A stretch of DNA of 64,000 bases. Origin: an uncultured Candidatus Saccharibacteria bacterium (GTDB lineage: Bacteria > Patescibacteriota > Minisyncoccia > Sungbacterales > SURF-37). This document shows positions 1 through 32,046 of this stretch, one piece after another. How positions within the stretch are numbered: position 1 is the stretch's first letter; each line of letters begins with the position of its first letter. Below the pieces are notes generated by a model. The model was not told where the DNA came from. It made no database searches and saw only the letters and a program-made list of their open reading frames with translations. The position numbers were made by a program, and so were the translations under genes. The stretch spans positions 727-64,726 of the forward strand of contig CAYIKH010000001.1 of assembly GCA_964363965.1 (NCBI GenBank), in the 5' to 3' direction.

Positions 1-732
1 GCCATATATATCAACGATGTCTTTTTCCATAAGATCTGCCGGTTTTCCGTCAAAAATGATTTCTCCCCCCTTTAATCCGACTATTCTTGACCCGTATGTT
101 TTGGCAAAATCAAGAAAGTGCAAACATGAGATTAACGTTATTTTTTTTTCCGCACATATGTTTTTCAATAAATCCATTATTTCCTTCATCAATTTCGGGT
201 CTAAATTAGAAACGGGTTCGTCGGCAAGAATAATATCCGGTTTCTGCGATAAGGCCCGGGCAATAGCCACTCTTTGTTTTTCTCCTCCGCTTAATTCGGC
301 TACTCTTTTTTTCTCATAATGTTCCAAACCAACAGTTTTAATATTGTCTCGGACTATAAGATAATCCTCTTCAGAAAATCTTCCCAACAATGTATCAAAA
401 CTACTGTGATATCTCAATCTGCCGTTCATAACATTTTTAAAAACGCTCTCCCTGTCAATAAGGTTAAAATGCTGGAAAATCATTCCGATTTTTCCCCTTA
501 TTCTATGAACTTCTTTCGGGCCGGCTTTCAGAATATTATCATTATCAATGAAAATATTTCCTAACGACGGTTCTATCAATCTGTTTATAGATCTCAACAA
601 CGTTGTTTTGCCCGACCCACTCGAACCCACCAATATCAAACTCTCGCCCCTGCCAATGCGAAGTGTGATATTTTTTATGGCTTTCTTTTCGCTGTTTTTG
701 TATTGGTGGGTTAAATTTTCTATTTTTATCAC
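1..732 (-). CDS. phnC: Phosphonate ABC transporter ATP-binding protein, C-terminus cut by window edge
   Basis: Minus-strand translation reads VIKIENLTHQ...GESLILVGSSGSGKTTLL (Walker A)...LSGGEKQRVAIARAL (ABC signature)...ILADEP (Walker B). GTG start at 732 overlaps the phnD stop. The + strand ORFs in the track here are shadows. Confidence 0.8.
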   Translation of the reverse strand, partial: MIKIENLTHQYKNSEKKAIKNITLRIGRGESLILVGSSGSGKTTLLRSINRLIEPSLGNIFIDNDNILKAGPKEVHRIRGKIGMIFQHFNLIDRESVFKNVMNGRLRYHSSFDTLLGRFSEEDYLIVRDNIKTVGLEHYEKKRVAELSGGEKQRVAIARALSQKPDIILADEPVSNLDPKLMKEIMDLLKNICAEKKITLISCLHFLDFAKTYGSRIVGLKGGEIIFDGKPADLMEKDIVDIYG

Positions 733-733
733 T

Positions 734-1642
734 TTATTTTGCGCTTTTGGCGCTGGTAACATCCATACCCAATGCCTTTGCCGTTTGCCTAATAATATCG
801 TAATCGCTATCAGACACTTTTTGATATTTTGCGATATCTCCCCATCCACTAACTTTAAGAATTGTCTGTTCGTCCATTCCAATTAGAGCGTTCTGAATAG
901 ATTGCTTTAATGCTTCTGGTAAATCGCCTCTTACCGCAATAGGAGAGCCTGGAATCGGGTTGGAGGTGTATATAATTTTATTAACCAGCGGGTCTATTTC
1001 TCCCGCTTTTACCATTCTGTTATATGAACTGTCGCTGTCGGCGCCCGCGTCTACTTTTCTGTTGGCAATTGAATACTCTACTGCATTATGAGTTCCGGCG
1101 TAATATGTCACGCTAAAATCTTTATCTGGATTTATTCCGTTTTCTATTAATATTTTTCTTGGGATAAGGTTGCCTGAAGTGGAAGCCGGATCAACAAAAG
1201 CAAATTTCTTGCCCTTTAAATCTTGTAAGGTTTTTATCCCGCTATCCGCCCTTACGACAATAATTGAATGATAATCTGATTTTCCATCGCTTCTTCTTAT
1301 GCCGTTGACAATAGCCTCTGCGTTTGCAACGTTTGCGGCAATAATATAAGAAAACGGGCCAAACCAAGCCATGTCTATATGCTTGGCCCTCATTGCCTCA
1401 ATCGCGGCTGTATAATCTGAAGTTACCTGTATTTCAACCGGAATACCCAATTTTTCTGACAAGTAATCCCTTACCGGCTCATAGTTTCTCAACATTTCTT
1501 CTGCATCGTCTGCCGGGATAAGTCCCATTTTCAAAACTTGAATTTTTTCTTGGCTGCCCTCGCTTTTATTGCCGGTTTGCACTTGCCAGGCAATAAAAAT
1601 TATAACGAAAAGAGTAGTTAATCCTAGTATTATTTTTTTCAT
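734..1642 (-). CDS. phnD: Phosphonate/phosphite ABC transporter periplasmic substrate-binding protein
   Basis: 302 aa with an N-terminal signal/TM segment. PhnD-family hallmarks are present (KMGLIP, DMAWFGPFSY, ASTSGNLIPR). It lies directly upstream of phnC in the same orientation. Confidence 0.85.
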   Translation of the reverse strand: MKKIILGLTTLFVIIFIAWQVQTGNKSEGSQEKIQVLKMGLIPADDAEEMLRNYEPVRDYLSEKLGIPVEIQVTSDYTAAIEAMRAKHIDMAWFGPFSYIIAANVANAEAIVNGIRRSDGKSDYHSIIVVRADSGIKTLQDLKGKKFAFVDPASTSGNLIPRKILIENGINPDKDFSVTYYAGTHNAVEYSIANRKVDAGADSDSSYNRMVKAGEIDPLVNKIIYTSNPIPGSPIAVRGDLPEALKQSIQNALIGMDEQTILKVSGWGDIAKYQKVSDSDYDIIRQTAKALGMDVTSAKSAK

Positions 1643-1856
1643 ATTTTATATTTTAGTTAATCACTAATTCTATTCTTTTAAAATTTTCAAGATATTTTAT
1701 AAATCGCTCACTTAGCGTTCTTTTCGCCCACCAAAATAACATTTTTTGTCCTTACGATACAATCTCCGCCTTTAGTCCGCATATTATAAACTTCTTTATT
1801 TGCGGCCCGAATCTTCCAGAAATTTTGGTTATTATCAGAATTGTTCATACGTGTGC
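1643..1856 (-). promoter_or_regulatory. AT-rich intergenic region upstream of phnD-phnC, likely promoter
   Basis: A 214-bp, very AT-rich non-coding stretch sits between the phnD start and the upstream gene end. No specific boxes were verified. Confidence 0.3.
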
Positions 1857-2669
1857 CTACAATGGTCTATAAATATTCAAGCCTCGGCGAGCGCGAATCA
1901 AAGTTTGGATGCACTCAAATATGAAATGAATAAAAGATGCAACCCAACGAATAAGCAAGAAAACGCTCATAATGTTAAAAATCGCGAAAAGCATGATACC
2001 GCCGAGCATAAAGTAGGCCTCTCTCCTAAGAAAAAAAACTGTATAATTGGCGAAACGTTGTAAAGCCTTTGGCTGGTCATAGTCAGGAGATCGCGAATTT
2101 ACCGATGTCGGCTTTATGCCTGTCTTAATGCTCTCGACCTCCAGTAATGCTGCGTGGAGACGATATGACAAAATCGCCTGAAAAGAAATCACAAGCGACG
2201 CAGTAGCGCCAATAATAAGAATGAGGCCATGAGGCACTTGATTATTTAAAGAAATGAGCAAATAATCCGCCCGCATATACAATCCAATCGAAACCGCTAA
2301 GGGAATGATTGCCTTAATAACCGTATCTGTTACATCCTCCAAAAATTTACCAAAGTGACTCGTCTCCTTGCGAAACCTGGCAATATTGCCGTCAACAAAA
2401 TCTAGAAGAGCGCTGAAAAAAAGCACAACACTTCCCGCGACCATCAAAGCATATCCCCCCACGGCCAAAAGAAAAAATCCGATTATTGCAATTAGAAATC
2501 TAAGCAAGGTTACGCCGTTGGCGGAAAAGCCCAGCCGCACGAAGGGAACCGCCAAATAAAAAGAAAGCGGCCGGTACACAAAACGTGAGACGGAAATTTT
2601 TCTGTCTATGCTCTCTTTAAGCCCATAGGCTTCCCTCAACTGACTAATAATCGAATTATTACGATTCAT
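1857..2669 (-). CDS. CDP-alcohol phosphatidyltransferase family membrane protein
   Basis: 270 aa polytopic protein carrying the D-x2-DG-x2-AR...G-x3-D-x3-D motif (DFVDGNIAR...GKFLEDVTD). Confidence 0.75.
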   Translation of the reverse strand: MNRNNSIISQLREAYGLKESIDRKISVSRFVYRPLSFYLAVPFVRLGFSANGVTLLRFLIAIIGFFLLAVGGYALMVAGSVVLFFSALLDFVDGNIARFRKETSHFGKFLEDVTDTVIKAIIPLAVSIGLYMRADYLLISLNNQVPHGLILIIGATASLVISFQAILSYRLHAALLEVESIKTGIKPTSVNSRSPDYDQPKALQRFANYTVFFLRREAYFMLGGIMLFAIFNIMSVFLLIRWVASFIHFIFECIQTLIRARRGLNIYRPL

Positions 2670-2928
2670 TTAACGTTTTAAAACATAAAGATATTTCAAA
2701 CCATCATATCATAGTTATGTTAAATAACAAGACACGCAAATTGAGAGCGATCCGCTGAAGTGGCAGATAGAGATCGTATTGTCTCCGGCTACCGGGAGGA
2801 TGATACCATCGTCGGGCTCAGGCGTCGCGAGGTCCGCAGCCGCTGTTTTTATTTCCGGAGTTGTTATATATAGTAGAAGTGAAGTATTCGTTCAGAAACA
2901 GATTCTCACTGGGTGATGTTGTATTAAC

Positions 2929-3744
2929 ATGGATAGTCCCGAAAAACTCTTTTCGGTCAAGAACAAGGTCGTCATCATTACCGGCGGCGCAGGCATGCTG
3001 GGCATGGAGTATGCGACCGTTCTTGCTCGTGCCGGAGCGCGTGTGGTGCTCTTCGATATTGCCGATGAGCCCGTCCTCCGCGCCAAGGCCGCCGAGGTGC
3101 GTCGCCGCACCGGTCGCCGGCCCCTGGCGCTCCGCGTGGACATTACCGATGAGCGGGCGGCGAAGAATGCGGTGCGTCTGGTCATCCGGCGCTACGGGCG
3201 CGTTCACGCCCTTGTGAATAATGCGGCCATTAATCCTGAGGTGGAAGGCGGCAGCTCGCGTGCGCAGTTTTCCCCCTACGAACGCTATCCCATTGATCTC
3301 TGGCGCAAGGAGCTTGAAGTTGGGCTTACCGGCGCTTTCATCGTTACCCAGGCCGTGATTCCGGCTATGAAACGGCGGCGGGAAGGCGTCATCGTCAACA
3401 TTGGGTCCATCTACGGCGAGACCGCGCCCGACAACCGCATCTACCCGAAGGGGCAGTTTAAATCTATCGCCTATGCAACGGCGAAAGGCGCGATGCGGAA
3501 CTTCACCCGCGCGCTTGCCTCGTATTTGGCGCCGTTCCAGATCCGCGTGAACCAGCTGACGCCGGGCGGCGTCTGGGCCGGGCAGCCGCCGGCGTTCGTC
3601 AAGAAGTATTCAAGCCGCACCATGCTCGGGCGCATGGCCGAGCGCAATGATTTTAACGGCGCACTCCTCTTCCTCCTCTCCGATGCTTCGCGCTACATGA
3701 CCGGCGCCAATCTCGTGGTGGACGGCGGCTGGAGTGCGTGGTAA
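2929..3744 (+). CDS. Short-chain dehydrogenase/reductase (SDR) family oxidoreductase
   Basis: TGGAGMLG Rossmann motif, NNAAI, and the YATAKGA catalytic Y-x3-K. Confidence 0.8.
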   Translation: MDSPEKLFSVKNKVVIITGGAGMLGMEYATVLARAGARVVLFDIADEPVLRAKAAEVRRRTGRRPLALRVDITDERAAKNAVRLVIRRYGRVHALVNNAAINPEVEGGSSRAQFSPYERYPIDLWRKELEVGLTGAFIVTQAVIPAMKRRREGVIVNIGSIYGETAPDNRIYPKGQFKSIAYATAKGAMRNFTRALASYLAPFQIRVNQLTPGGVWAGQPPAFVKKYSSRTMLGRMAERNDFNGALLFLLSDASRYMTGANLVVDGGWSAW

Positions 3745-3886
3745 TACTTGTTATGTCAGAAAATTCGTCCAAAGTTCTCGGAATTGTCCCGCTGGATTTC
3801 ACCCGCGTGCCGATTCAGAAGCATTTCGTGGATTGAAGAGCGTCGGGCAATGTTCTCGGTGGTGATCCGAAGTTTCTGGCATCTCT

Positions 3887-4573
3887 ATGAAGTTTTCCTT
3901 GGTCATTCCGGCATATAATGAAGAGGAGAGTATCGGGGCGGCGGTGCGCGGTCTTCGGGATGCTCTCGGGCGCGTCGAGCATTCGTTCGAGATCATCGTG
4001 GTCAACAATGGTTCGACCGACGGGACTCCCCGCGTTCTCGAGGAGCTCCGAGCCGATGTTCCGGAGCTTGCGGTCGTGCGGGTAGACGTGAATCGCGGTT
4101 ACGGCAACGGGGTCATTGCTGGCCTCCGCGAAGCCCAAGGGGAAATTCTGGGTTGGGTGGATGCCGACAATCAGGTCGCGCCGGAAGACGTCGCGGCCGT
4201 ATATCGGGAAATCCTGCATGGGGGCGCTGATCTTGTCAAAGCCGTCCGGACGACGCGCCGTGAGTCGCGTTTCCGGAGGCTCCAGAGTGTTGTCTATAAT
4301 GCTATCTTCCGCATCCTTTTCGGCGGCAGATACCGCGATATCAACGCGAAACCGAAAATGTTTCGGCGCTCGCTTTGGGAGTCGCTCCACGTCACATCGC
4401 TTGATTTTTTCATCGATGCCGAGGTAATGATAAGGGTGATACGCGCTCGGCGTCAGATTCGGGAAGTCGAGGTATCGTGGGCGGCCCGCACCTCCGGCCG
4501 ATCGAGCGTGCAGCCGTCCGCGGCGGTCGAATTTTTGAAGAACTTGCTCCGCTATAAATTTTTTAGAGATTAA
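3887..4573 (+). CDS. GT2 glycosyltransferase, DPM1/GtrB-like polyprenyl-phosphate sugar synthase
   Basis: Begins SLVIPAYNEEESIGAAV... with a VNNGSTDGT DxD-region and a 228-aa architecture typical of Dpm1/ArnC-like enzymes. Confidence 0.75.
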   Translation: MKFSLVIPAYNEEESIGAAVRGLRDALGRVEHSFEIIVVNNGSTDGTPRVLEELRADVPELAVVRVDVNRGYGNGVIAGLREAQGEILGWVDADNQVAPEDVAAVYREILHGGADLVKAVRTTRRESRFRRLQSVVYNAIFRILFGGRYRDINAKPKMFRRSLWESLHVTSLDFFIDAEVMIRVIRARRQIREVEVSWAARTSGRSSVQPSAAVEFLKNLLRYKFFRD

Positions 4574-4578
4574 TTCGT

Positions 4579-5415
4579 ATGGAATCTCGTGCTTCCGCGT
4601 CGCTTCAGGATTCAAAGAGTGTCCATGCCGATATGCCGGTCGTGATTTTTTGCGGCGGGCGGGGCACGCGCCTCAAAGAGGAAACGGGCGCGATCCCGAA
4701 GCCCCTCGTGAAAATCGGCACGCATCCGATCCTGTGGCACATTATGAAGGGTTACCACGCCCAGGGATTCCGGAAGTTCGTGCTCTTAGTCGGGTATCTC
4801 GGTGAGAAGATAAAAGAGTATTTCTATACGTATCCGGTTTATCATGGCAGTTTCACGATCCGACCCGGTGCGAACGGGCCCAGGATCGATTACCATGACG
4901 TCCCGCCCGAAGACTGGGAGGTCACAGTGCTTGATACCGGCATTGACGTCGAAACCGGCGGACGGCTCCAGCGCGCGAAATCACATCTTGGGCAAGGGAG
5001 ATTTCTGCTCACCTACGGGGACGGCGTTGCCGATGTGAACGTAGAGGAGCTCATCCGGTTCCATGACACTCACCGTCCGGTCGTGACCATCACCGGGGTT
5101 CATCCGCCGAGCCGTTTCGGAGCCCTGGAGATGGATGGTCCGCTCGCCAAAACGTTTTTCGAAAAGCCGAGCACCCAGTCTTCCTACATCAACGGAGGTT
5201 TTTTCGTTGTGGAGCCGTCAATATTCATGTTTCTTTCCGATGACCCAAAACTGAATTTCGAGAAAGACGTTTTGCGCAAGCTCGCGCGCGAGTCAAACCT
5301 CGCGGTCTATCCCCATCACGGCTATTGGCAGTGCATGGATACCATTCGCGACGTCGAGTTCTTGAACGAGGAATGGGCCAAGAACCAAGCGCCCTGGAAA
5401 GTATGGAACGACTAA
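4579..5415 (+). CDS. rfbF: Glucose-1-phosphate cytidylyltransferase
   Basis: VIFCGGRGTRLKEETGAIPKPLV and GYHAQGF are RfbF signatures. The true start may be the ATG at 4633 (MPVVIF...). Confidence 0.8.
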   Translation: MESRASASLQDSKSVHADMPVVIFCGGRGTRLKEETGAIPKPLVKIGTHPILWHIMKGYHAQGFRKFVLLVGYLGEKIKEYFYTYPVYHGSFTIRPGANGPRIDYHDVPPEDWEVTVLDTGIDVETGGRLQRAKSHLGQGRFLLTYGDGVADVNVEELIRFHDTHRPVVTITGVHPPSRFGALEMDGPLAKTFFEKPSTQSSYINGGFFVVEPSIFMFLSDDPKLNFEKDVLRKLARESNLAVYPHHGYWQCMDTIRDVEFLNEEWAKNQAPWKVWND

Positions 5416-6410
5416 CACGCCACGCCGCCACCCCAAGGGGTGGTTTCTGGAGCAAGCGCCGAGTGCTGGTCACCGGCGGCGCGGGGTTCATTGGTTTTAA
5501 GCTCGCTTGTCATCTTCGCGATAGGGGAGCCGAGGTTACGCTCCTTGACATTAAAAAAGCATTGCCGAGCTTTGCCAACCCCGTCGACAAACGTACGTTC
5601 GTATATGTGCGCGGCAGCGTGACATCCCGGAAAACGGTTGCATCACTTCTTAAGCGCCGCAACGTCCAGACCGTATTCCATCTTGCCGCGGAGGCGATCG
5701 TGGGCCGGGCACTCCGCGATCCCGCGGCGGCGCTTGAAGCGAATGTCCGCGGCACGTGGGTGCTCCTCGAATGCGTGCGTCAAAATCCGAACGTGGCCGA
5801 GGTCGTTGTCGCGTCTTCAGACAAGGCGTACGGATCTCATGCGCGCCTTCCGTACCGCGAAGATGCCAAACTCGCCGGGCTGAATCCGTATGACTGCTCA
5901 AAAAGCTCGGCTGACCTCATTGCGCAAATGTATGCGCGTACCTATGCGTTGCCGGTTGCCGTTGCCCGGTGCGGGAACGTCTACGGCGGAGGGGACCTCA
6001 ACTGGAGTCGCCTTGTTCCCGATGCCCTCCGATCGCTCGCGAGCGGCACGCCGCTTCAGTTGAGGAGTGACGGCACGCATACACGGGATTACGTGTACGT
6101 GGATGATGTTCTCGACGGCTACCGCGTCCTAGCCGAGAATATTCGCCGGAAAAAACTCTCCGGCGAAGCGTTTAACTTCGGAACGAATGAACCGCTTTCG
6201 GTGCGCGATGTTTTGGGCCTAATCGCCCGCGCCGCGGGCCGAATGGTGCCCTCGAGAATCGCGAACACGCCCTCGCGCGAAATTCGTTCGCAGTATTTGG
6301 ATTGGAGTAAGGCTCGGCGCGTTCTGGGTTGGCGCCCGAATGTGCGGCGAACAATCGGTTTCAAGAAAACTGCCGACTGGTACACGGATTTTTTCAGCCG
6401 GCCAACATGA
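5403..6410 (+). CDS. rfbG: CDP-glucose 4,6-dehydratase
   Basis: FWSKRRVLVTGGAGFIGFKL, DKAYG and YDCSKSSADLI (Y-x3-K) are present. The start was chosen at MERLTR, so the full ORF frame extends further upstream; the gene overlaps the rfbF end. Confidence 0.75.
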   Translation: MERLTRHAATPRGGFWSKRRVLVTGGAGFIGFKLACHLRDRGAEVTLLDIKKALPSFANPVDKRTFVYVRGSVTSRKTVASLLKRRNVQTVFHLAAEAIVGRALRDPAAALEANVRGTWVLLECVRQNPNVAEVVVASSDKAYGSHARLPYREDAKLAGLNPYDCSKSSADLIAQMYARTYALPVAVARCGNVYGGGDLNWSRLVPDALRSLASGTPLQLRSDGTHTRDYVYVDDVLDGYRVLAENIRRKKLSGEAFNFGTNEPLSVRDVLGLIARAAGRMVPSRIANTPSREIRSQYLDWSKARRVLGWRPNVRRTIGFKKTADWYTDFFSRPT

Positions 6411-7690
6411 TGAATCTTGAATATCCCAAACACCACTTGGTGAACGTCGGGCATATACCCAATTGCCAAATATGCAATTCCGCGAAACTCCACACGGTCT
6501 TAGACCTCGGGCACCAGCCGTTATGCGACACGTTGCTCACCGACGCGATGCTTAACGAACCCGAGAAAACGTATCCGCTGCGGATGATGTGGTGCGAAGA
6601 GTGCACCGGCGCTCAAATTGATTACTGCGTTGACGGGAGTGAAGTGTACTATCCGGGTTATCCCTATAAGAGCGGTGTTACGAAGGAGCTCGTCGAGTAT
6701 CAAGTAAACATCGCGCGCGGTCTCGTGGGAAAATATGGATTAAAAGCTGGCGATCTCGTCGTTGATGTCGGTTCGAACGACGGAACGTTGCTCAGCGGGT
6801 TCACGGGTACGGGCATTCGGACGCTCGGAGTCGAGCCAACCAATATCGCGAAGATGGCCAAAGCCAGCGGCATCGAAACTGTGCAGTCCTTTTTCGACAT
6901 CAAGACGTCGCAGGCGATCAAGGAGCAATACGGTTCGGCCTCCGTAGTTATCACGACAAATACATTCGCCCACATGCGCACGATCGGAGAGTTCATCATG
7001 GGGGCCTATAATCTCCTGAACGATGACGGCGTATTCATGTCCGAAACCCATTATCTATTGGACGTCGTTCGGGGAGGGCAATTCGACACGATATATCACG
7101 AACATTTGCGGACGTACTCGCTCGCGTCCTTGATTCGATTGTTCGATCAGTATGATTTTACCCTGACCGATGCGGAACGGGGGGAGAGATACGGCGGCAA
7201 TATTCGCGTGTATGTTGCGAAGGGGAAGGGGAGGCCCGTCTCCCCGGCAGTCGCGGCGTTATTGCAACTGGAACAATCATCCGGGCTTGGAGAATATAAA
7301 ACGTATGCGGCATTTGCCGAGCGCGTGAAAAAAGCGCGCCTCGAATTCATGGATTTTCTCATTCATGCTAAAAAGGCCGCGAAGTCCATTGTCGGGAACT
7401 CGTGCCCGGGGCGATCCGTGACGCTTCTCAATTACTACGGGGTAGATCCGGAATTGCTGCCGTACGTCGCCGAACAGCCCGCTTCTTTGAAGTTGGGCAT
7501 GTACGTGCCGGGCACGCATCAGCCGGTGGTCGCGAACCAGCGGCTCATTGACGAGCAGCCGGATTTTGTCGTGCTGTTGGCGTGGCACTACGCAGAACCC
7601 ATTATGGAGCAATTGAAAGCTCGGGGACTGAAGTCGGATTTCATCATTCCGCTGCCCGATTTTCGAATCGTGAAAAATTCCGAGGTGTGA
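6407..7690 (+). CDS. NDP-hexose C-methyltransferase (TylC3/Methyltransf_13+14 type), CDP-pathway associated
   Basis: An N-terminal Cys-rich Zn motif (CQICNS...CDTLL...CEEC) precedes the SAM fold (VVDVGSNDGTLL) and a C-methyltransferase C-terminal domain. Its ATGA overlaps the rfbG stop. Confidence 0.7.
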   Translation: MMNLEYPKHHLVNVGHIPNCQICNSAKLHTVLDLGHQPLCDTLLTDAMLNEPEKTYPLRMMWCEECTGAQIDYCVDGSEVYYPGYPYKSGVTKELVEYQVNIARGLVGKYGLKAGDLVVDVGSNDGTLLSGFTGTGIRTLGVEPTNIAKMAKASGIETVQSFFDIKTSQAIKEQYGSASVVITTNTFAHMRTIGEFIMGAYNLLNDDGVFMSETHYLLDVVRGGQFDTIYHEHLRTYSLASLIRLFDQYDFTLTDAERGERYGGNIRVYVAKGKGRPVSPAVAALLQLEQSSGLGEYKTYAAFAERVKKARLEFMDFLIHAKKAAKSIVGNSCPGRSVTLLNYYGVDPELLPYVAEQPASLKLGMYVPGTHQPVVANQRLIDEQPDFVVLLAWHYAEPIMEQLKARGLKSDFIIPLPDFRIVKNSEV

Positions 7691-7720
7691 GCTGACGGCG
7701 CTTACCAGCGCCTCCTCGAC

Positions 7721-8647
7721 ATGGCCCAGTTAAAAATCGCAATTCTCGGAGCGAGCGGCATCGGAAGATTTCATTTCAGAGAGTTTGCGCGCGCGGGAGT
7801 CAAAGTCACCGCCATTCTCGGAAGCAGTTACGAAACCGCCGAGAGGACTGCCGTCATGCTCTCTTCGGAATTCGGCCTGCGTCCGAAAGCGTATTCGGAA
7901 TTGGGCGTCCTTATTGAAGCCGAGCGCCCGGATGCCGCGAGCGTTTGCACTCCTCCCGAACTTCACTATGACCAGGTAAAGATGTGCCTCGCGGCGGGAT
8001 TGCATGTTCTTTGCGAAAAGCCGTTTGTCCTTAACTCCGATGGCGATGCGAGCGGTCTCGCGACCGAGCTCGTTCGGTTGGCGAAGAAACGGGGGCGAGT
8101 CATTACGGTGAACACCCAATGGCCTTCCGTTTTACGGTACGTACAGCCGTTCGTTGATGTTTCCAAAATCCGGGACTTTTTCATGTATACCCAGCCGGGC
8201 GTCCGGGGGGCAGGCATATTGAGGGATCACCCGCCGCATGCGAACAGTATGCTGGTAAAACTCGTTCCGGATGGACGAGCGGAAGACATAGAATTTCTGG
8301 TATCTTCTCCAGAAGAGATGGATGTCAATTTCGAATATCGCGCGCGCGGCTCACGTTGCGCCGTCCGCTACAAATTCAAATTCAAAGCCGCGAGGCCCCG
8401 CGATCTTGAATTTTCCATCAACGGGGTTGCGTTCAAGCGGCATATCGGGGAAGGCTATAGCCAGAAACTCGTTACGGGTAAAACGGAAATTGATATCGAG
8501 GATCCGTTCAAAACTTCGATTGGAATGTTCGTTGGCGCCATCGAGGGGAGGAGTTCGCCATTGATCAGCACGCAAGAGATAATTGAAAATGTGCGGCTGC
8601 AGGACAGAATCATCAAGGCGTATGTAGCGGAAAAGGGCAAGCAGTAA
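7721..8647 (+). CDS. Gfo/Idh/MocA family NAD(P)-dependent oxidoreductase (candidate sugar 4-ketoreductase)
   Basis: The N-terminal Rossmann motif IAILGASGIGRFH is followed by LHVLCEKP. Confidence 0.75.
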   Translation: MAQLKIAILGASGIGRFHFREFARAGVKVTAILGSSYETAERTAVMLSSEFGLRPKAYSELGVLIEAERPDAASVCTPPELHYDQVKMCLAAGLHVLCEKPFVLNSDGDASGLATELVRLAKKRGRVITVNTQWPSVLRYVQPFVDVSKIRDFFMYTQPGVRGAGILRDHPPHANSMLVKLVPDGRAEDIEFLVSSPEEMDVNFEYRARGSRCAVRYKFKFKAARPRDLEFSINGVAFKRHIGEGYSQKLVTGKTEIDIEDPFKTSIGMFVGAIEGRSSPLISTQEIIENVRLQDRIIKAYVAEKGKQ

Positions 8648-8787
8648 CGTTTATCGTTTGGGAGCCGGGCGGTGAGTTCGAGGAGATCGCCCACTGACCT
8701 TCGTGAAAGAATCAACATCATCATGGTTAGGTACGACATTCCAACATTCTTGATAATGTGAGAATATCGCTTCATTAAAGTACGAAG

Positions 8788-10749
8788 TTGTTCATGTTTA
8801 CCCTGCTGATATTGAGTCTTTTTTTCGCCGCCACCCTTGCTTTCGGATGCGTTGTTGCCGCTGTTTTTTTGCCGAGCTCCGAACGGCGTTGGTACGTTGT
8901 GGCGCCGATCGTGCTCATTATTGGCCTGAACGGCTACGTAATGATCCTGAACCTCGTTGCATATTTGGTCCCTGTCCAGCGCGCGTTCTGGGTGGTGCTT
9001 ACGGGGATGAGTTTGGCCGCAGCGGCGGGATTGATGGCGATGCGGCGCCGGAAAACATCCCTGATTGCGCCGGATGACTTGAAACCTCGCCAACGGCAAT
9101 TCCTCGTGTTCACGACATTCGTTGTCATGCTCCTTGCCGGGTTCGTTTCCTACCTCACACTTGGAGATGATATCTATCTCGTGAATATGCCGCTTGCATC
9201 AACCATCAGCGAGGGAAACTTCCCCGTGCTCGATCCATCCGATCCGAGTTTTCGCGTCGCCTACCATTACGGGCCCGACCTGCTCATCGCGGCCCTTCAC
9301 CGTACGGCCCATATACCGCTCTGGCTCGGCTATGATATTCAAACCTTCCTTTTCATTGGTGCGGCGTTCCTCATGGCGTTTGCCCTCGCGCGTTCCGTTG
9401 TTTTGCGTTTCCGGAGCGCGTTCCTTGCCGCATTGCTGATGCTCTATGGGAGCGGCCTCGTCTGGATGAAGGGGTTCCACGGCATTGCCGTATTTTGGCA
9501 AAAATTAAGCGGCGGAAGCGCCGGCCCGGCCCCATGGAAATTCTTTGCCGACATGGCATTTCCTAATTTTGATTCGAGCATTGCGGCCACCACGAGCCAT
9601 ACCGTTATCATGGGCATGCCAATCGTCCTGCTCGTGTTGTATCTCTATAACCAGGCCATTGACGCCGAGCGCGATGCTTGGCTTCGGCCGACACTGCTTG
9701 CTGGCGTGCTTTACGGCTACACCGCTTTCATAGTCGAAACGCATTTCATCGTGATGTTCGCGGCATTTATCGGCATGCTGTTTCTCGAGGGAACGCGGTA
9801 CCTCTGGTCCGGGCGGCCTGCCGCTCGGCGCGATCAACTTCTGCGCCTTGCCGGCGTTACGGGTATTGTCATCGTCGTCGCCCTGCCCCTCGCATTTCTC
9901 CAGGGCGGGATACTCACGACCGTGAGCGATCCCGGCGCGACGCATCGATTCGAGCTGGTCAAACATTTTTGGAGCCAAGGCATTACCGATAAGCAGGTGC
10001 TTCCGTTCCGCTGGGCATTCTTCCAGGACTTCGGTTTGCCCCTTATCTTGTTTCTCCCCGCCCTTTATTTTTTCCGGAATGATCGGCGCGTTCAGTTCAT
10101 TGCGCTTATCGCCCTCGGAGCATTCCTGGTGCCGCTCCTTATCCGCTACACGCCATCACCCCGGGAAATGGAACGGCTTTTCGGTTTTGCGACACCGCTC
10201 TTTGCGTTTCTTGCCGGTCTTTTTCTTTCGGAGGTCGCTGCGGCATTCACGCTCAATCGTCATAGAAAAATGATCTCGTTCGCATTGCTTCTCCCCATCT
10301 TTGCCATGGTTGGCACCGCTCTTGCGGCCCAGGCCTTCGGTATTGCGTACCCGCTTGTGCGGCCCCAGGGCAGACATTATATGCTTGCCGCCGTTCCTCC
10401 CGAAGTTCCGGCAATTGACCAGAAGGCCTACGTCTGGATTCGGGAGCACACCATCCTTCAGGATTGGTTTTTCCCCTACAGTCAGGATTTTATCCGGGAA
10501 GTCGGGCGCTTCACTCCCGGGCCGTATTTTCCGGGCGTGACTCGGCCGAGTGTCATTACTGACTACGAGGAGGCCGTTCGTTCATGCAGTCGCGAGTCGT
10601 TTGCAAAACTCGGGGTTACCTACCTCTACGTTTCACCGCGGTTTCCGATCGCCGATTTTAAAATCCGGTGTCTGCCGAATCTTCACGCGACTCCGCTCTA
10701 TCAAGATGGTGTGGGCCCAGAAATGCGGAGCGTGTATCGGCTTGAATAA
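8788..10749 (+). CDS. Large polytopic membrane protein with C-terminal soluble domain; candidate GT-C-type glycosyltransferase
   Basis: 653 aa with more than 10 predicted hydrophobic helices, then a ~150-aa non-hydrophobic tail. No motif was confidently assigned. Confidence 0.45.
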   Translation: MFMFTLLILSLFFAATLAFGCVVAAVFLPSSERRWYVVAPIVLIIGLNGYVMILNLVAYLVPVQRAFWVVLTGMSLAAAAGLMAMRRRKTSLIAPDDLKPRQRQFLVFTTFVVMLLAGFVSYLTLGDDIYLVNMPLASTISEGNFPVLDPSDPSFRVAYHYGPDLLIAALHRTAHIPLWLGYDIQTFLFIGAAFLMAFALARSVVLRFRSAFLAALLMLYGSGLVWMKGFHGIAVFWQKLSGGSAGPAPWKFFADMAFPNFDSSIAATTSHTVIMGMPIVLLVLYLYNQAIDAERDAWLRPTLLAGVLYGYTAFIVETHFIVMFAAFIGMLFLEGTRYLWSGRPAARRDQLLRLAGVTGIVIVVALPLAFLQGGILTTVSDPGATHRFELVKHFWSQGITDKQVLPFRWAFFQDFGLPLILFLPALYFFRNDRRVQFIALIALGAFLVPLLIRYTPSPREMERLFGFATPLFAFLAGLFLSEVAAAFTLNRHRKMISFALLLPIFAMVGTALAAQAFGIAYPLVRPQGRHYMLAAVPPEVPAIDQKAYVWIREHTILQDWFFPYSQDFIREVGRFTPGPYFPGVTRPSVITDYEEAVRSCSRESFAKLGVTYLYVSPRFPIADFKIRCLPNLHATPLYQDGVGPEMRSVYRLE

Positions 10750-10905
10750 ATCAGCGAGAGGCTCAATAAAAAGAGCCGCGATCGTGCGGTTCGTGTTGGT
10801 CTGCGTCTGGCCGAGGGCCTTGGCTCCGTTACGATTGGCCCGGAGTGCGTTTCAGCTCGGAACGAGGAGGGGATCGGGATATGACCAGCGAGGAAATCGA
10901 GCATC

Positions 10906-11283
10906 TTGCCGAGTGGCTTAGGTATTATGGAGTTCCTGGCGTGCTACGCCTCGAGCTTATCGGTGGACGCCGCAAGGTTTGACAAGCTGGTCATAAATGT
11001 GGCTTTCGAGATTTCGCCGCCGCGCCTTGCCTGCAAAGCCCCGTCGCGGCTCTACGGCTTGAATCATTACAAAAAAGCGTTGAAAGTAGAGGGCGTTCGT
11101 CTTGTCCAGAGCCAGGAGGAATTGCTATTCTGGATTCATCGTTACCTTGATGATTCTGCTCTTGATAGGGAAGGGCGGCGGCGGCTTGTCCAGGCGCAGT
11201 GCTGGCAGACCGACGGCCGCGCCGTAGAGCGGATAGCCCGACGCATCCTGCGTGCTGCAGGTGTCATAACTCAAGCGTCATAA
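10906..11283 (+). pseudogene. 3' remnant of a TagF-like transferase paralogue
   Basis: The 125 aa align with the last ~125 residues of the proteins at 24722, 26128 and 36906 (for example YASSLSVDAARFDKLVINV and HYKKALKVEGVRLVQSQEELLFWIHRYLDDSALDREGRRRL match paralogue 2). No N-terminal ~330 aa is present upstream in any frame. Confidence 0.6.
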
Positions 11284-11302
11284 TAAGGGATGCGGACGCG
11301 TC

Positions 11303-13210
11303 ATGAACGCAATGTTTCAGTTGCGACTAAAATTTCCGTGGTGGTTGTGGCTGGCCGGCCTCGCTTTTTTGGTCGGCGCACTACACCTCGCGCCGAGCTT
11401 GTTCATCAAGGCCGCCATTGAGCGCATTGGGGGCTTGTATCTCCTTCCGCAAGTTGTCCATCCCACCCATTCCGACAGCGTCATGTGGTATGTTCCGGCG
11501 AGCCGCGAAGTGGCCGAAGGCCACCTCGTGCCATCGGACATCTATATTCCTACAAACAAGCGGCTTCCCTTTTTCCTCCCTCCGTTGCCGCTCATTTTCT
11601 TCGGCGCGCTCATCGCCCTTGCCGGAGATGCAAATTACGCCTACCTCGCGGCTTTGTTTGTATTTCCCGTAATCACGTTTTTCCTTTTCTATTGGCTGGG
11701 TCGGTTGTTCTTGGCATCGCGCCTTGGCAGCGCGGCGTTTGCCCTGGTCGGGACCTTAACGCCCGTGGCTCTCGCCTACCTGGGGCGAACCACGGAAACG
11801 CTGCAGCTTACCCCGCTCATAACCCTGAAGAGTTTTCTCCCGTTCGTCAGGACGCCCATTCCCGAACTCTATCTTTCGCGGATTACCGAGCCGCTTCTGA
11901 CCATTCCGCTCCTCATCCTGGGTTTCGGGTTTCTCTGGCGCTTTTGGATCCAGCCCTCGCCGCGGCGCGGGGCGCTCGCCGGCGGCGCGATGGCTTTGAC
12001 ACTCTACACGTATCTGCATTACTTTGCGTTCCTGGCGGGGTTCGGCGCAGTGCTCTTTTGTTTTTCGTTTGCGGTATCGCGCGAGCGCGCGAATCTCCGG
12101 GTATGGGCGATTTTCTTCGGCGCGATGGCCATCGGTATTCTGCCGTTTCTTTTCAATTACCTCGAACTCCGCGCTCTCCCGCAGTTCGGCGATTGGGCCG
12201 CTCGTTTGAGCGGGGCGTTTGAGCGCTGGCGCGGCATCCGCCTCTCGGCCTGGCGCGACTACATCCTCTACGCTATTCTCGCGATACCGCTGATACCGCT
12301 TTGGCGGCGCGACCGCAGATTGGCGATGTTCTTCGGGGCGGCTCTGGTTGCGATGGTGATGCTGTGGAATATTCAAATCGTCACCGGTTTTTCCATCATC
12401 CCGACGCACTGGCATAAGGCCTTTGGCGTCCCGCTCTATACCCTGGTGGCCGTTGAGCTCGCCTACGCGGCGGCCTCGATCAGCCAACATCCGCGTTGGC
12501 GCGTTAGGCGCCGGGCCATCGCGGCTGGTTTGACGGTTCTCCTCGTTTTCCTCGTTGCCAAGCGCATCATGAATGCCGCGGCTTACCTCTATCCCGACCG
12601 GCGTACCATGGCCGCCTTTTCGTTCCCAGCCGAGATTTACGATTCATGGCAGTGGCTGAATCAAAATGTTCCTTCCGAATCAGTGGTCCTCTCGACGTCC
12701 TATGTAACGTCGCTCTATCTCGCGGGTTATACGGACACGAATCACTACTTGCCGTTCGGCGACCTGACCCTGACTTCACGCCGCGATCTTGAGGAGCGAT
12801 TCCTTACCGCCCACAAGCTCTTCGGCGTTCCGGAAGAGCGGGTGCGCTTGCTCCTCCGCGGCAAGTACTATCCGCCCACGATATGCGATGTCGGCGGCGA
12901 GTGCGGCAACGAGCATAGCGAGCGAAATCTCCTGCGCGTGCCCCAGATGCTCTACAACGGCGCGTTCGATCCACGGCAGCACGGCCAGGATCAGCTTGAG
13001 CTTTCTTACGAGCCGCTGATTCCGCTTGCGGTGATTGATGATCTTATGGGACGCTACGAAAACGCCCGGCCCGATTGGAAGGATTTCCGGGGCGACTATG
13101 TCTACTATGGCCCGTGGGAGCGCGAGATTCATTCGGTCAACCTTAAGACCAATCCTCGCCTTGAGCTCTTGTATAATCGGGGCGGGGTTGAGATTTACAA
13201 GGTGAGGTAA
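11303..13210 (+). CDS. Large polytopic membrane protein with C-terminal soluble domain; candidate GT-C-type glycosyltransferase
   Basis: 635 aa with more than 10 hydrophobic helices and a C-terminal soluble domain. It sits next to the DPM1-like GT2. Confidence 0.45.
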   Translation: MNAMFQLRLKFPWWLWLAGLAFLVGALHLAPSLFIKAAIERIGGLYLLPQVVHPTHSDSVMWYVPASREVAEGHLVPSDIYIPTNKRLPFFLPPLPLIFFGALIALAGDANYAYLAALFVFPVITFFLFYWLGRLFLASRLGSAAFALVGTLTPVALAYLGRTTETLQLTPLITLKSFLPFVRTPIPELYLSRITEPLLTIPLLILGFGFLWRFWIQPSPRRGALAGGAMALTLYTYLHYFAFLAGFGAVLFCFSFAVSRERANLRVWAIFFGAMAIGILPFLFNYLELRALPQFGDWAARLSGAFERWRGIRLSAWRDYILYAILAIPLIPLWRRDRRLAMFFGAALVAMVMLWNIQIVTGFSIIPTHWHKAFGVPLYTLVAVELAYAAASISQHPRWRVRRRAIAAGLTVLLVFLVAKRIMNAAAYLYPDRRTMAAFSFPAEIYDSWQWLNQNVPSESVVLSTSYVTSLYLAGYTDTNHYLPFGDLTLTSRRDLEERFLTAHKLFGVPEERVRLLLRGKYYPPTICDVGGECGNEHSERNLLRVPQMLYNGAFDPRQHGQDQLELSYEPLIPLAVIDDLMGRYENARPDWKDFRGDYVYYGPWEREIHSVNLKTNPRLELLYNRGGVEIYKVR

Positions 13211-13227
13211 AGCAAATATTAGCCATC

Positions 13228-16253: not shown

Positions 16254-16316
16254 TCTCATGATTTGGGAGTTGCTGTTTCGGCGGACCGGTGCTATGGTAG
16301 TCACTGCCGAATTTCT

Positions 16317-17543: not shown

Positions 17544-17557
17544 CATAATGCGCAAGT

Positions 17558-18622: not shown

Positions 18623-18629
18623 GCTTAAT

Positions 18630-20255: not shown

Positions 20256-20648
20256 TTGGATATGCAGTTTCACGAATACCGATTCCACGAGGACGACCGC
20301 CGCAAAGGGCGTTACGACATTGTTTCCGGCCTTGTCGGAGAGATGAATTTTTCCGTACACCCTGCCGGAGTGGTTCCTGAAGAGTGGCACATGCATAAAA
20401 TTCATACCGACTATTTCACGGTGGCCAAAGGCCGGGCACTGTTTCGGCTTCTATATGAGGATGGACGTGAGGAGAAAATCATTTTGAGCGAAAGAGATGC
20501 CAAGACCCTGATCGTGCCTCCTGGCGTTTGGCATAACTACACGGCGCTCGAGCCGACGATTATGATTTTCTACATTGACCGTAAATTCGATGCCGCCGAT
20601 GAATTTCGGAAGCCATGTGATGCCGACGGCTGGAGCGTTGATAGATAG
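20256..20648 (+). CDS. Cupin-fold NDP-4-keto-6-deoxyhexose 3,4-ketoisomerase/epimerase (FdtA/WxcM-like)
   Basis: 130 aa with the WHMHK...TDYFTVAKG...VWHNY His-containing cupin motifs. Confidence 0.55.
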   Translation: MDMQFHEYRFHEDDRRKGRYDIVSGLVGEMNFSVHPAGVVPEEWHMHKIHTDYFTVAKGRALFRLLYEDGREEKIILSERDAKTLIVPPGVWHNYTALEPTIMIFYIDRKFDAADEFRKPCDADGWSVDR

Positions 20649-23904: not shown

Positions 23905-23993
23905 GAGGTTGGGGTTGAAATTCCTTCGCGGTAGTCGAGGCCGAGACCTCGATGCCGGTGGAGAAGTATTCTTAAAAGAGGCACATCTGCTAT

Positions 23994-31948: not shown

Positions 31949-32046
31949 GAGGTCTTAGCTGGTGAGCGATTAGTCGGCCGATGACCGAAACCTATTCTTG
32001 TGAGGTATTTCTATCTGGATATGCATCGGCAACATTCGAACTCAAC

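Follow-up and report, generated by a model that had tools for sequence, protein, structure and literature searches.

A six-gene cassette of a Patescibacteria bacterium that may build and export a methyl-branched, CDP-linked 6-deoxy sugar

Results

A six-gene unit on one strand

Six genes occupy positions 3887–10749 on the plus strand of the window, as we call the whole 64-kb stretch of DNA analyzed here, which comes from a Patescibacteria (CPR) bacterium. The first encodes a GT2 glycosyltransferase of 228 amino acids (3887–4573; PF00535, 101.5 bits), a proposed polyprenyl-phosphate sugar synthase. It is followed by genes for an RfbF-family glucose-1-phosphate cytidylyltransferase (4579–5415, 278 amino acids) and an RfbG-like NDP-glucose 4,6-dehydratase (5403–6410, 335 amino acids), a divergent short form of the extended SDR type with an SSDK...YxxxK signature. 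Then come MT1, a predicted NDP-4-keto-6-deoxyhexose C-methyltransferase of the TylC3/TcaB9/KijD1/MtmC family (6407–7690, 427 amino acids), a Gfo/Idh/MocA NAD(P) oxidoreductase proposed to be a C-4 ketoreductase (7721–8647, 308 amino acids; PF01408, 79.7 bits), and an integral membrane glycosyltransferase of predicted GT-C fold, proposed to use a lipid-linked sugar (8788–10749, 653 amino acids). The four central genes had been named in a first-pass annotation, and gene calls bear out their positions and strand, as Pfam, NCBIfam and PDB matches do their families; the unit is larger than was claimed, however, as the GT2 gene before it and the GT-C gene after it had gone unmentioned.

Direct reading of the sequence places the dehydratase ATG at 5403, giving a 13-nt overlap with the end of rfbF, stop codon included (5403–5415). 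It also confirms the reported ATGA linking the dehydratase gene to the methyltransferase gene (6407–6410), in which the ATG of the latter (6407–6409) overlaps the TGA stop codon of the former (6408–6410). A 30-nt spacer separates the methyltransferase and Gfo genes. In the closest relative, locus L089, the 13-nt overlap is present (nucleotidyltransferase gene, 1052–1894; SDR gene, 1882–2895), whereas the ATGA is replaced by a 20-nt gap.

All six genes recur in L089 in unchanged order (GT2–nucleotidyltransferase–SDR–methyltransferase–Gfo–membrane protein), and there the methyltransferase is 84%, Gfo 71% and the membrane protein 73% identical to its counterpart in the window. The order is GT2–methyltransferase–Gfo–nucleotidyltransferase–SDR in L001 and methyltransferase–Gfo–GtrB-like GT2–methyltransferase–GtrA–rfbF–rfbG on a Legionella adelaidensis plasmid. 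Loci of Pseudobdellovibrionaceae, Stellaceae and Pirellulales have rfbF and/or rfbG 4–77 nt from a 51–52%-identical methyltransferase, and another cassette type, found in Methylocystis (L008), reads rfbF–rfbG–methyltransferase–rfbC–reductase. Since the same neighbors recur in L089 (in the same order), L001, L006, L007, L015, L016 and L017, the arrangement is not a product of chance. Of 72 distantly related loci, 63 have an RfbF-family gene no more than 10 kb from the methyltransferase, and Sinorhizobium meliloti pSymB has an annotated rfbF–rfbG–'NDP-hexose 3-C-methyltransferase' triad (SMb21416–21418; PMC4053727). Thus, the gene arrangement itself is not rare, and the statement that CDP-linked C-methyl sugars are very rare holds for the described chemistry but not for genomes.

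The nucleotidyltransferase and the dehydratase

The nucleotidyltransferase matches TIGR02623 (glucose-1-phosphate cytidylyltransferase) across the entire profile (positions 1–255 of 255) with 292.8 bits, just under the cut-off of 300.25 bits; the next family scores 82 bits. Against the Salmonella (S. typhi) RfbF structure 1tzf it scores 236 bits over the full length, and the next PDB match is at 63 bits. For the SDR, the top NCBIfam match is TIGR02622 (CDP-glucose 4,6-dehydratase) with 195 bits, short of the equivalog cut-off of 278 bits, and TIGR01181 (dTDP-glucose dehydratase) gives 177 bits. By plain sequence it scores 135 bits against dTDP-glucose dehydratase structures and 120 bits against the CDP-glucose dehydratase 1rkx. 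Its active-site stretch, SSDKAYG, aligns with the TSDKCY/TSDKVY of PGAP-annotated rfbG, while the RmlB encoded in the window has STDEIYG; the SDR scores 149 bits against Legionella rfbG and 122 bits against this RmlB.

The C-methyltransferase

MT1 matches Methyltransf_13 (PF08421, 70.5 bits), Methyltransf_23 (PF13489) and Methyltransf_14 (PF08484, 141.9 bits). It thereby has the three domains (Zn-binding Methyltransf_13, class I SAM and Methyltransf_14) of TylC3, EryBIII, TcaB9, KijD1 and MtmC, dTDP-hexose C-3-methyltransferases of actinomycete antibiotic deoxysugars, and it shares with them four conserved cysteines and a Y-x-E-H motif. Its PDB matches are MtmC (4rv9, 241 bits; E-value 1.7e-70), KijD1 (207 bits) and TcaB9 (198 bits; E-value 3e-57), and the alignments with all three preserve the CxxC...CxxC cysteines and the IYHEHL motif. 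In a neighbor-joining tree, the sister clade is entirely RfbF/RfbG-linked. In L011 and L012, a 69–71%-identical ortholog with its Gfo partner instead has RmlA-like and STDE-type RmlB-like genes as its neighbors, RfbF being absent within 10 kb, which indicates that the nucleotide is not fixed within the methyltransferase clade.

The oxidoreductase, the GT2 and the membrane protein

The Gfo gene follows the methyltransferase gene in the CPR loci that have downstream sequence, and the pair is kept across CPR bacteria, Legionella and Pirellulales. The CPR Gfo proteins form two subfamilies that share only 22% identity, whereas Legionella and Pirellulales have a third type; a Pacearchaeota MAG encodes a Gfo of the window's type (43% identical) after a fused SDR–C-methyltransferase. 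This conserved adjacency across phyla supports the earlier suggestion of a plausible 4-ketoreductase, and we consider that function likely for the protein.

The best NCBIfam match of the GT2 is ArnC (88 bits, under the cut-off), and polyprenyl-phosphate glycosyltransferases (ArnC, Pyrococcus DPMS and GtrB) fill the first seven places among its PDB matches. An ortholog lies 6 nt upstream of the methyltransferase gene in L001 and holds the same position in L089. The membrane protein has nine homologs and belongs to no described family; its GT-C fold is predicted by a medium-confidence model based on only 10 sequences. We identified no GtrA-like flippase in the window. The two glycosyltransferase genes flanking the core indicate where the sugar would go.

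Genes absent from the window and further methyltransferases

The reported absence of an RfbH-like E1 dehydrase was confirmed within the 64 kb: tblastn with an RfbH-sized DegT protein of 436 amino acids from L003 gave no match in any frame (E<1e-8), and no DegT domain turned up when ORFs as far as 55.5 kb were scanned against Pfam. The window encodes no homolog of RfbH, of any other DegT aminotransferase or of RmlA, so that no competing route of 3-deoxygenation or amination is visible there. The cassette also has no 3,5-epimerase gene, the sole RmlC-like gene lying 27 kb away (35248–35763).

Four O-methyltransferase candidates had been proposed nearby. The gene at 13926–14852 clearly encodes a class I methyltransferase (PF13489, E 8.5e-24), that at 15192–16253 passes TIGR04371 ('putative sugar O-methyltransferase') with 129.7 bits against a 44-bit cut-off, and 20651–21700 encodes its 67%-identical paralog; 27512–28327 gives sub-threshold matches only. 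The two paralogs flank a previously unmentioned dTDP-type module with a second C-methyltransferase and RmlB/RmlD (16263–19484), and they may belong to this module instead of the CDP pathway.

Discussion

Our analysis suggests, at a probability of roughly 55%, that the six genes form one glycan-modification cassette that makes a methyl-branched 6-deoxy sugar on CDP and hands it, by way of a lipid carrier, to a membrane glycosyltransferase. The RfbF-family enzyme would convert glucose-1-phosphate and CTP to CDP-D-glucose, from which the short RfbG-like SDR would form CDP-4-keto-6-deoxy-D-glucose, as suggested by synteny and by the Asp-Lys dyad that it shares with CDP-glucose 4,6-dehydratases. 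MT1, judged by its fold and catalytic motif, would deprotonate the carbon beside the 4-keto group and add the methyl group of SAM, most likely at C-3, by analogy with every structurally characterized relative. The Gfo enzyme could then reduce the 4-keto group, the only ketone left after C-3 methylation, with NAD(P)H to yield CDP-6-deoxy-3-C-methyl-D-hexose. Fold and synteny further suggest that the ArnC/DPMS-like GT2 loads the sugar onto polyprenyl phosphate and that the GT-C protein transfers it outside the membrane to a putative cell-surface acceptor, much as GtrB/GtrA/Gtr* or ArnC/ArnT do. Gene families, active-site motifs and cross-phylum synteny uphold the earlier core reading, in which CDP-type glucose activation and 4,6-dehydration feed a TylC3-family C-methyltransferase, with Gfo as the likely 4-ketoreductase and without an E1 dehydrase, while CDP itself as the handle is what we infer from the sequence.

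Other readings touch individual steps. The lipid carrier and the GT-C enzyme could be bypassed altogether if cytoplasmic Leloir glycosyltransferases of the 50-kb glycan island around the cassette used the sugar nucleotide directly: the island encodes a Bac_transf priming enzyme (49385–50803), several GT1, GT2 and GT4 enzymes and a Wzy_C/TPR protein, and some homologs of the membrane protein, as in L090, have no C-methyltransferase near them. We regard this as possible but doubtful, given the polyprenyl-phosphate enzymes among the nearest GT2 structures, the GtrB-like GT2 and GtrA genes of the Legionella cassette, the YfhO gene 4 kb downstream in L001, and the GT-C gene placed right after Gfo in the window and L089. 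The chemistry could also be as proposed on another handle, with the RfbF-like enzyme and the short SDR using dTDP- or UDP-glucose to give a dTDP- or UDP-6-deoxy-3-C-methylhexose. Both enzymes fall under their equivalog cut-offs, the SDR fits dTDP-glucose dehydratase structures marginally better, and the methyltransferase clade is paired with RmlA/RmlB-type genes in L011 and L012; moreover, the RmlB and RmlD of the window pass their cut-offs without an RmlA, so that some enzyme must supply them with NDP-glucose. A handle other than CDP nevertheless seems unlikely to us, because the match between the nucleotidyltransferase and S. typhi RfbF spans the whole length, all other nucleotidyltransferase structures scoring at most 63 bits, the SDR carries the rfbG-type SDK in place of RmlB's TDE and is nearer to annotated rfbG than to the window's RmlB, and L011, L012 and L014 form one derived subclade in the neighbor-joining tree.

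The reduction at C-4 might be the work of MT1 itself, as in bifunctional MtmC, or of an SDR of the island, leaving Gfo to act elsewhere, for example at C-2 or on another substrate. MtmC, the S. argillaceus TylCIII homolog for which a passage in PMC3539893 cites ketoreductase activity, is the top PDB match of MT1; known NDP-sugar enzymes of the Gfo family are 3-dehydrogenases or 3-ketoreductases, the S. meliloti triad has no adjacent reductase, and several SDR genes of the window (at 28293, 30294 and 34374) are unassigned. Such a division of labor is improbable in view of an adjacency that spans three Gfo subfamilies, four phyla and one archaeal fusion context, and of C-4 as the sole reducible position once C-3 is methylated; in addition, Methylocystis L008 has an RfbC-like gene and an SDR reductase in place of Gfo, as expected if SDR and Gfo are functional substitutes. 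Still less probable is methylation at C-5, as by NovU, CloU and CouU in noviose synthesis, which would give a 5-C-methyl (gem-dimethyl) 6-deoxyhexose. C-3 and C-5 are both alpha to the 4-keto group, the computed evidence does not tell the two sites apart, and C-5 methyltransferases fall in the same Pfam family as the C-3 enzymes, but the nearest solved relatives (MtmC, KijD1 and TcaB9) are all C-3 enzymes, and the epimerase that acts before methylation in the noviose route is absent from the cassette. Finally, the genes could belong to a CDP-3,6-dideoxyhexose or a two-carbon-branched, yersiniose-like pathway with E1/E3 or thiamine-dependent partners encoded outside the window. In the Magasanikbacteria loci L003–L005, a 75%-identical methyltransferase ortholog directly follows genes for a 436-residue DegT protein, a split transketolase, RfbF and an SDR, and a DegT gene is near in L009 and L010 too. 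We think this very unlikely here, as the 64 kb hold no RfbH or DegT homolog, the L089 and L001 cassettes likewise have none, and the six-gene route is chemically complete by itself.

MT1 shares the expected substrate of the TylC3-type enzymes, an NDP-4-keto-6-deoxyhexose, but resembles them only distantly, with other branches of the family at about 35% identity. Its gene is coupled to genes of the RfbF/RfbG type, not of the RmlA/RmlB type, and its partner is Gfo in place of an SDR ketoreductase; MT1 is also proposed to serve a cell-surface glycan of a CPR bacterium rather than secondary metabolites. With the CDP-3,6-dideoxyhexose pathway of Salmonella and Yersinia (RfbF/DdhA, RfbG/DdhB, RfbH/E1 and RfbI/E3), the cassette shares the families of the first two steps, including the Asp-Lys dyad of the dehydratase; its own dehydratase has neither the insert nor the C-terminal tail found in canonical RfbG, E1 (RfbH) is missing and C-methylation takes the place of 3-deoxygenation. 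The first-pass annotation had pointed to CDP-vinelose, the 6-deoxy-3-C-methyl-2-O-methyl-L-talose nucleotide of Azotobacter vinelandii and, to our knowledge, the only described CDP-linked C-methyl 6-deoxyhexose, whose genes have never been assigned as far as we know. The analogy is poor: vinelose is an L-sugar that needs a 3,5-epimerase, and since the cassette has none, a D-series 6-deoxy-3-C-methylhexose would be expected. The rfbF–rfbG–methyltransferase–rfbC–reductase cassettes, as in Methylocystis L008, are better vinelose candidates.

For virenose (6-deoxy-3-C-methyl-D-gulose) of Coxiella burnetii, also a D-series 6-deoxy-3-C-methylhexose, TylC3-family CBU_0691 was proposed to methylate an NDP-4-keto-6-deoxyhexose for a surface glycan. 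That work put forward GDP- or dTDP-linked routes and could not name a 4-ketoreductase (PMC3539893), whereas the window offers a CDP-type handle and an adjacent Gfo as candidate reductase. The S. meliloti triad matches the cassette in its three enzyme families and their order, with a methyltransferase about 31% identical to MT1 and no adjacent Gfo, GT2 or GT-C gene. We found no record that its product has been identified, and the product of the window's cassette is likewise a prediction. For export, the cassette would follow the common logic of GtrA/GtrB/Gtr*, ArnC/ArnT and CsbB/YfhO, in which a small GT2 makes a polyprenyl-phosphate monosaccharide for a GT-C enzyme outside the membrane, although the C-terminal membrane helices found in ArnC and GtrB are missing from its GT2. 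The known lipid-carrier systems use UDP- or GDP-sugars, in contrast to the CDP proposed here, and we know of no polyprenyl-phosphate GT2 for which use of a CDP-sugar has been demonstrated. The type of pathway is already known, and this cassette would be a variant of it.

Proposed nucleotide-sugar supply and C-methylation

The four co-directional genes at 4579–8647, including the ATGA overlap that joins the second to the third, are as the first-pass annotation described them. The first (4579–5415), co-directional with the three next genes, encodes a 278-aa nucleotidyltransferase of the RfbF family. It matched TIGR02623 (glucose-1-phosphate cytidylyltransferase) over the whole profile at 292.8 bits, against a cut-off of 300.25 and a runner-up family at 82, and Salmonella RfbF (1tzf) end to end at 236 bits, with all other nucleotidyltransferase structures at 63 or below. 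From these matches we infer that its product would be CDP-glucose. This RfbF-like enzyme is the sole glucose-1-phosphate nucleotidyltransferase of the window, though RmlB, RmlD and RmlC-like (35248–35763) genes are all present; no RmlA homologue was found within the 64 kb. RmlA may be encoded beyond the window; otherwise, a single enzyme would have to feed both dehydratases.

The second gene (5403–6410) starts with an ATG at 5403, overlapping the rfbF stop by 13 nt, and encodes an extended short-chain dehydrogenase/reductase (SDR) of 335 aa. Its best model was TIGR02622 (CDP-glucose 4,6-dehydratase; 195.2 bits, under the equivalog cut-off of 278.45), with the dTDP-glucose 4,6-dehydratase model TIGR01181 a close second (177 bits), and scores against PDB sequences (135 versus 120 bits) did not separate dTDP- from CDP-glucose dehydratase. 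Alignment showed that the SDR is a shortened form without the internal insert and C-terminal tail of annotated, canonical RfbG, which explains its sub-threshold TIGR02622 score. Asp-Lys dyads mark CDP-glucose dehydratases and Asp-Glu dyads dTDP-glucose dehydratases, as seen in Yersinia and Salmonella structures. The SDR carries the S/T-D-K dyad and YxxxK motif of CDP-glucose 4,6-dehydratases: its SSDKAYG and YDCSK align with TSDKCY/TSDKVY and YSNSK/YSASK of the PGAP-annotated rfbG products of Legionella and Methylocystis, whereas the window's own RmlB (17558–18622) has STDEIYG in place of SSDKAYG. Thus, the kind of dehydratase that the SDR resembles is RfbG.

The third gene (6407–7690), whose start lies in the ATGA overlap with the SDR stop codon, encodes a 427-aa protein with the three-domain architecture PF08421, PF13489 and PF08484. 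The N-terminal four-cysteine zinc-binding domain scored 70.5 bits (PF08421; cut-off 31.3), the central class I SAM domain 43.8 bits (PF13489), and the C-terminal Methyltransf_14 domain 141.9 bits over profile positions 3–160 of 160 (PF08484; cut-off 23.5). Among solved sugar 3-C-methyltransferases it matched MtmC at 241, KijD1 at 207 and TcaB9 at 198 bits. Its CxxC...CxxC cysteines align with those of MtmC, so that all four zinc cysteines are kept, as is the Tyr-x-Glu-His motif, which reads FDTIYHEHL in both the query and MtmC and FDQIYDEHF in KijD1. We take the IYHEHL stretch to correspond to Tyr222, Glu224 and His225 of TcaB9, residues whose catalytic roles were studied there. With a 4,6-dehydratase gene overlapping its start, the enzyme is predicted to C-methylate an NDP-4-keto-6-deoxyhexose at a position alpha to the 4-keto group.

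The candidate reductase, the glycosyltransferases and the extent of the unit

The 308-aa product of the fourth gene (7721–8647) has an N-terminal Rossmann domain with an EKP motif and a C-terminal alpha/beta substrate domain, as in Gfo/Idh/MocA proteins. In the CPR loci whose sequence extends past the methyltransferase gene, the next gene encodes a Gfo protein. These proteins fall into two subfamilies that share only 22% identity, and Legionella and Pirellulales have a third type in the same position. That the pairing survives such non-orthologous replacement argues that the Gfo enzyme completes the work that the methyltransferase would begin. The two subfamilies could conceivably yield different C-4 epimers. 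Homologues of the window-type Gfo are also carried by DPANN archaea: a Pacearchaeota MAG (L093, GCA_016180565.1; 4665–7915) encodes a 770-aa SDR/C-methyltransferase fusion and, after it, a Gfo protein that shares 43% identity with that of the window, and the subfamily is therefore common to CPR bacteria and DPANN archaea. The SDR half of that fusion has an STSE motif, as in enzymes of the UDP-xylose-synthase type.

The first-pass annotation had bounded the cassette at 4579–8647. The unit is larger, as a family 2 glycosyltransferase gene (GT2; 3887–4573, 228 aa) lies 5 nt upstream of rfbF and a membrane protein gene (8788–10749) lies downstream of Gfo. All six genes, from GT2 to the membrane protein, recur in unchanged order on L089, a metagenome contig of 7.3 kb and the closest relative; identities are 84% for the methyltransferase, 71% for Gfo and 73% for the membrane protein. 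A promoter and terminator scan of 2600–13400 gave counts equal to those of shuffled sequence, so operon boundaries are not definable from that scan.

The seven best PDB sequences for GT2 were all polyprenyl-phosphate glycosyltransferases (ArnC at 73 bits, Pyrococcus DPMS at 56, GtrB at 44); its best NCBIfam match was likewise ArnC, at 88 bits, far under the 529-bit cut-off, and the 228-aa protein stops short of the ArnC/GtrB transmembrane region. The product of 8788–10749 has the predicted multi-pass membrane fold of GT-C enzymes, shared with STT3, PglB, PMT, ArnT and Aft enzymes. Between its gene and a further GT2 gene, a second multi-pass membrane protein (11303–13210, 635 aa) was matched by nothing in Pfam, NCBIfam or the PDB, and profile comparison gave no similarity between it and the GT-C protein. 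The GT2 of the corresponding Legionella cassette is homologous to GtrB over its full length (5ekp, 191 bits) and is encoded two genes upstream of a GtrA-family gene, and YfhO is encoded 4 kb downstream at another homologous locus (L001).

Distribution and linkage of the methyltransferase

Database searches with the methyltransferase returned more than 5,400 matches, the best 120 of which were 73–100% identical, and all of those 120 with a named source came from Patescibacteria (Parcubacteria, Paceibacterota, Magasanikbacteria and Daviesbacteria). Among species-representative genomes, homologues fell into three tiers: CPR bacteria at 66–77% identity; Pseudobdellovibrionaceae, Stellaceae and Pirellulales at 51–52%, a tier into which a Legionella adelaidensis plasmid protein also falls (52.6%); and members of many phyla at 37% or less. 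Between the window and four loci bearing Saccharibacteria, Daviesbacteria, Magasanikbacteria and Parcubacteria MAG labels (L009, L010, L013 and L014), the methyltransferase is 66–84% identical. Such identity is unusually high for lineages so divergent, suggesting that the methyltransferase–Gfo pair may have spread laterally.

RfbF and RfbG genes adjoin the methyltransferase orthologue in L001, L003/L005, L006, L007, L015 and L016, and rfbG alone does so in L017, at a contig end. The orthologue of a Magasanikbacteria locus (L003, GCA_018657365.1; 2279–10301), 75% identical, is preceded by genes for RfbF, an SDR, a transketolase whose N and C halves are separate genes, another SDR and a 436-aa, RfbH-sized DegT protein; the pathway encoded here may be a more complex one, leading to a branched or 3-deoxy CDP-sugar.

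We surveyed 72 distant family loci (identity of 37% or less), a sample skewed towards relatives of the query. An RfbF-family gene lay within 10 kb at 63 of them, 17 of these being strong RfbF matches and 46 belonging to a sister subfamily that scores 183–228 bits on TIGR02623. RfbG was also present at 12 of the 72 loci and an RfbC-like epimerase at 45, while an RmlB-like gene was the best dehydratase at just one. Sister-subfamily members are full-length on TIGR02623 but below its cut-off, and lie about 100 nt or less just downstream of the C-methyltransferase gene (L020, L037, L061, L064, L070, L086); their hosts include many Actinomycetes, Cyanobacteria and Acidobacteriota, usually with no RfbG-like dehydratase close by. 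The family also appeared in 172 records of a plasmid collection, including pSymB of S. meliloti.

A second C-methyltransferase module and the surrounding island

The window contains a second C-methyltransferase module (16263–19484), missing from the first-pass annotation. A TylC3-family protein of 426 aa, 36% identical to the first (16263–17543), is encoded directly upstream of RmlB (17558–18622; TIGR01181 passed at 386.7 versus 365.1 bits) and RmlD (18636–19484; TIGR01214 passed), followed by an unassigned 184-aa ORF and a small FdtA-like cupin; we count 20256–20648 with the module. In the Magasanikbacteria locus L003, the equivalent methyltransferase and dehydratase form one 769-aa fusion.

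Four nearby genes had been proposed as O-methyltransferase candidates. Of these, 13926–14852 encodes a class I methyltransferase; 15192–16253 matched TIGR04371, 'putative sugar O-methyltransferase', at 129.7 versus 44 bits; and 20651–21700 is its 67%-identical paralogue, also matched by TIGR04371. For 27512–28327, all matches were sub-threshold. Pfam methyltransferase matches to 15192–16253 and 20651–21700 were likewise all sub-threshold. Since these paralogues lie one on each side of the second, RmlB/RmlD-linked C-methyltransferase, they may belong to that module, and O-methylation of the CDP sugar is possible.

The cassette stands at the start of a roughly 50-kb glycan island, with further spans at 21758–27501, 31226–34356, 40542–43636 and 45923–50803. 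Its genes specify a pair of NeuB-type nonulosonic acid synthases, both accompanied by a CMP-transferase, two Glyphos_transf proteins, the enzymes of a GDP-heptose set (nucleotidyltransferase, GHMP kinase, HAD phosphatase and SIS isomerase), a Bac_transf priming enzyme and a Wzy_C protein that ends in a long TPR tail. This is a large surface-glycan investment for a small-genome CPR bacterium. Window positions 1–2000 have a G+C content of 0.378, against 0.51–0.59 elsewhere in the window, and carry a gene for a phosphonate-binding ABC substrate-binding protein (734–1642, minus strand); the stretch may have been acquired from a foreign source or may mark a join in the assembly.

Discussion

The overall pathway logic proposed in the first-pass annotation, a CDP-activated C-methyl deoxyhexose, has been strengthened by synteny, with the nucleotide itself a matter that we infer. 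The RfbF-family enzyme would make CDP-glucose, which the SDR would dehydrate to CDP-4-keto-6-deoxy-D-glucose. The methyltransferase would then act next to the keto group; the most probable site is C-3, where all solved relatives methylate their substrates. Once methylated, C-3 would be a tertiary alcohol, leaving C-4 as the sole position open to an oxidoreductase; Gfo would reduce the left-over 4-ketone to give CDP-6-deoxy-3-C-methyl-D-hexose. We propose that GT2 then transfers this sugar to polyprenyl phosphate, from which the GT-C enzyme would take it outside the membrane, and the GtrB homologue and nearby GtrA-family gene of the Legionella cassette lend independent support to the lipid-carrier step. 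Every enzymatic step here is predicted from family membership, motifs, folds and synteny.

Other readings of these genes were weighed. The CDP-3,6-dideoxyhexose pathway was rejected, as no E1 was found in the window: tblastn with an RfbH-sized DegT protein gave no match in any frame of the 64 kb, in agreement with the absence noted previously, and Pfam scans of window ORFs up to 55.5 kb gave no DegT domain. An epimerase role for the SDR was rejected, given the dehydratase acid/base Asp in its SDK motif and the requirement of the methyltransferase for a 4-keto substrate. An O- or N-methyltransferase, or a non-sugar enzyme, was rejected for 6407–7690 on its full three-domain match to solved sugar C-methyltransferases. 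The analogy drawn with vinelose fits poorly, as 3887–10749 contains no 3,5-epimerase and the one RmlC-like gene of the window (35248–35763) lies beside GDP-heptose genes. The Methylocystis cassette, with the order rfbF-rfbG-methyltransferase-rfbC-reductase, would be a better candidate than that of the window for an L-series, vinelose-like sugar.

A dTDP-linked supply also has to be considered. In two Patescibacteria MAGs (L011, 7578–11547; L012, 7347–13035), an orthologue 69–71% identical to the methyltransferase, together with Gfo, is found beside genes for RmlA-like and STDE-type RmlB-like proteins and has no RfbF gene less than 10 kb away. In the neighbour-joining tree, these two and L014 form one subclade whose sister clade is entirely RfbF/RfbG-linked, so CDP-type linkage looks ancestral, with the supply line switched once. 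The tree and the linkage support the CDP reading for the window, yet the methyltransferase clade seems not to be bound to one nucleotide; L011 and L012 appear to represent a natural exchange of the supply line inside one enzyme clade.

The statement that such sugars are very rare fails for the gene arrangement, which is common given RfbF linkage at 63 of the 72 distant loci; it is the described chemistry of CDP-linked C-methyl sugars that is sparse. To our knowledge, vinelose is the only such sugar described. Branched C-methyl sugars are found almost exclusively in dTDP-linked actinomycete antibiotics and in a few surface antigens with unsettled genetics (Coxiella virenose, Azotobacter vinelose). 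Searches for vinelose, CDP-4-keto-6-deoxy C-methyltransferases and CDP branched-chain sugars found nothing in a literature thin on subscription journals, so a characterised enzyme may exist; nothing relevant to Patescibacteria glycosylation was found in it either. For virenose, GDP or dTDP routes have been proposed, with no 4-ketoreductase nameable (PMC3539893). In S. meliloti pSymB, rfbF, rfbG and the methyltransferase form a three-gene operon, entered as ddhA, ddhB and NDP-hexose 3-C-methyltransferase in PMC4053727, where alone among the searched literature the triad appears.

We give a probability of roughly one in three (0.35) to the full reading: that this is the first defined CDP-dependent sugar C-methyltransferase pathway; that Gfo is a new kind of NDP-sugar C-4 ketoreductase; that 6-deoxy-3-C-methyl-D-hexose passes via polyprenyl phosphate to an undescribed GT-C family; and that the methyltransferase–Gfo core is a mobile two-gene unit, disseminated among CPR bacteria, DPANN archaea, Legionella and Planctomycetes and joinable to a CDP- or dTDP-glucose supply. 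That the gene arrangement is widespread and has been annotated before limits the value of the finding. The cassette is an uncharacterised variant of a known pathway type that deserves in vitro reconstitution; the gain would lie in biochemical confirmation, not in a conceptual surprise.

If the reading is true, it would name specific enzymes with which the synthesis of a CDP-linked C-methyl sugar could be tested, and would add a new class of 4-ketoreductase. Methyltransferase pairs about 70% identical, with CDP- and dTDP-type partners, would be a ready system for studying nucleotide-handle specificity, useful for glycodiversification. CPR bacteria are not culturable alone and their envelopes are almost unstudied; the cassette would offer a first look at the chemistry of CPR surface glycans.
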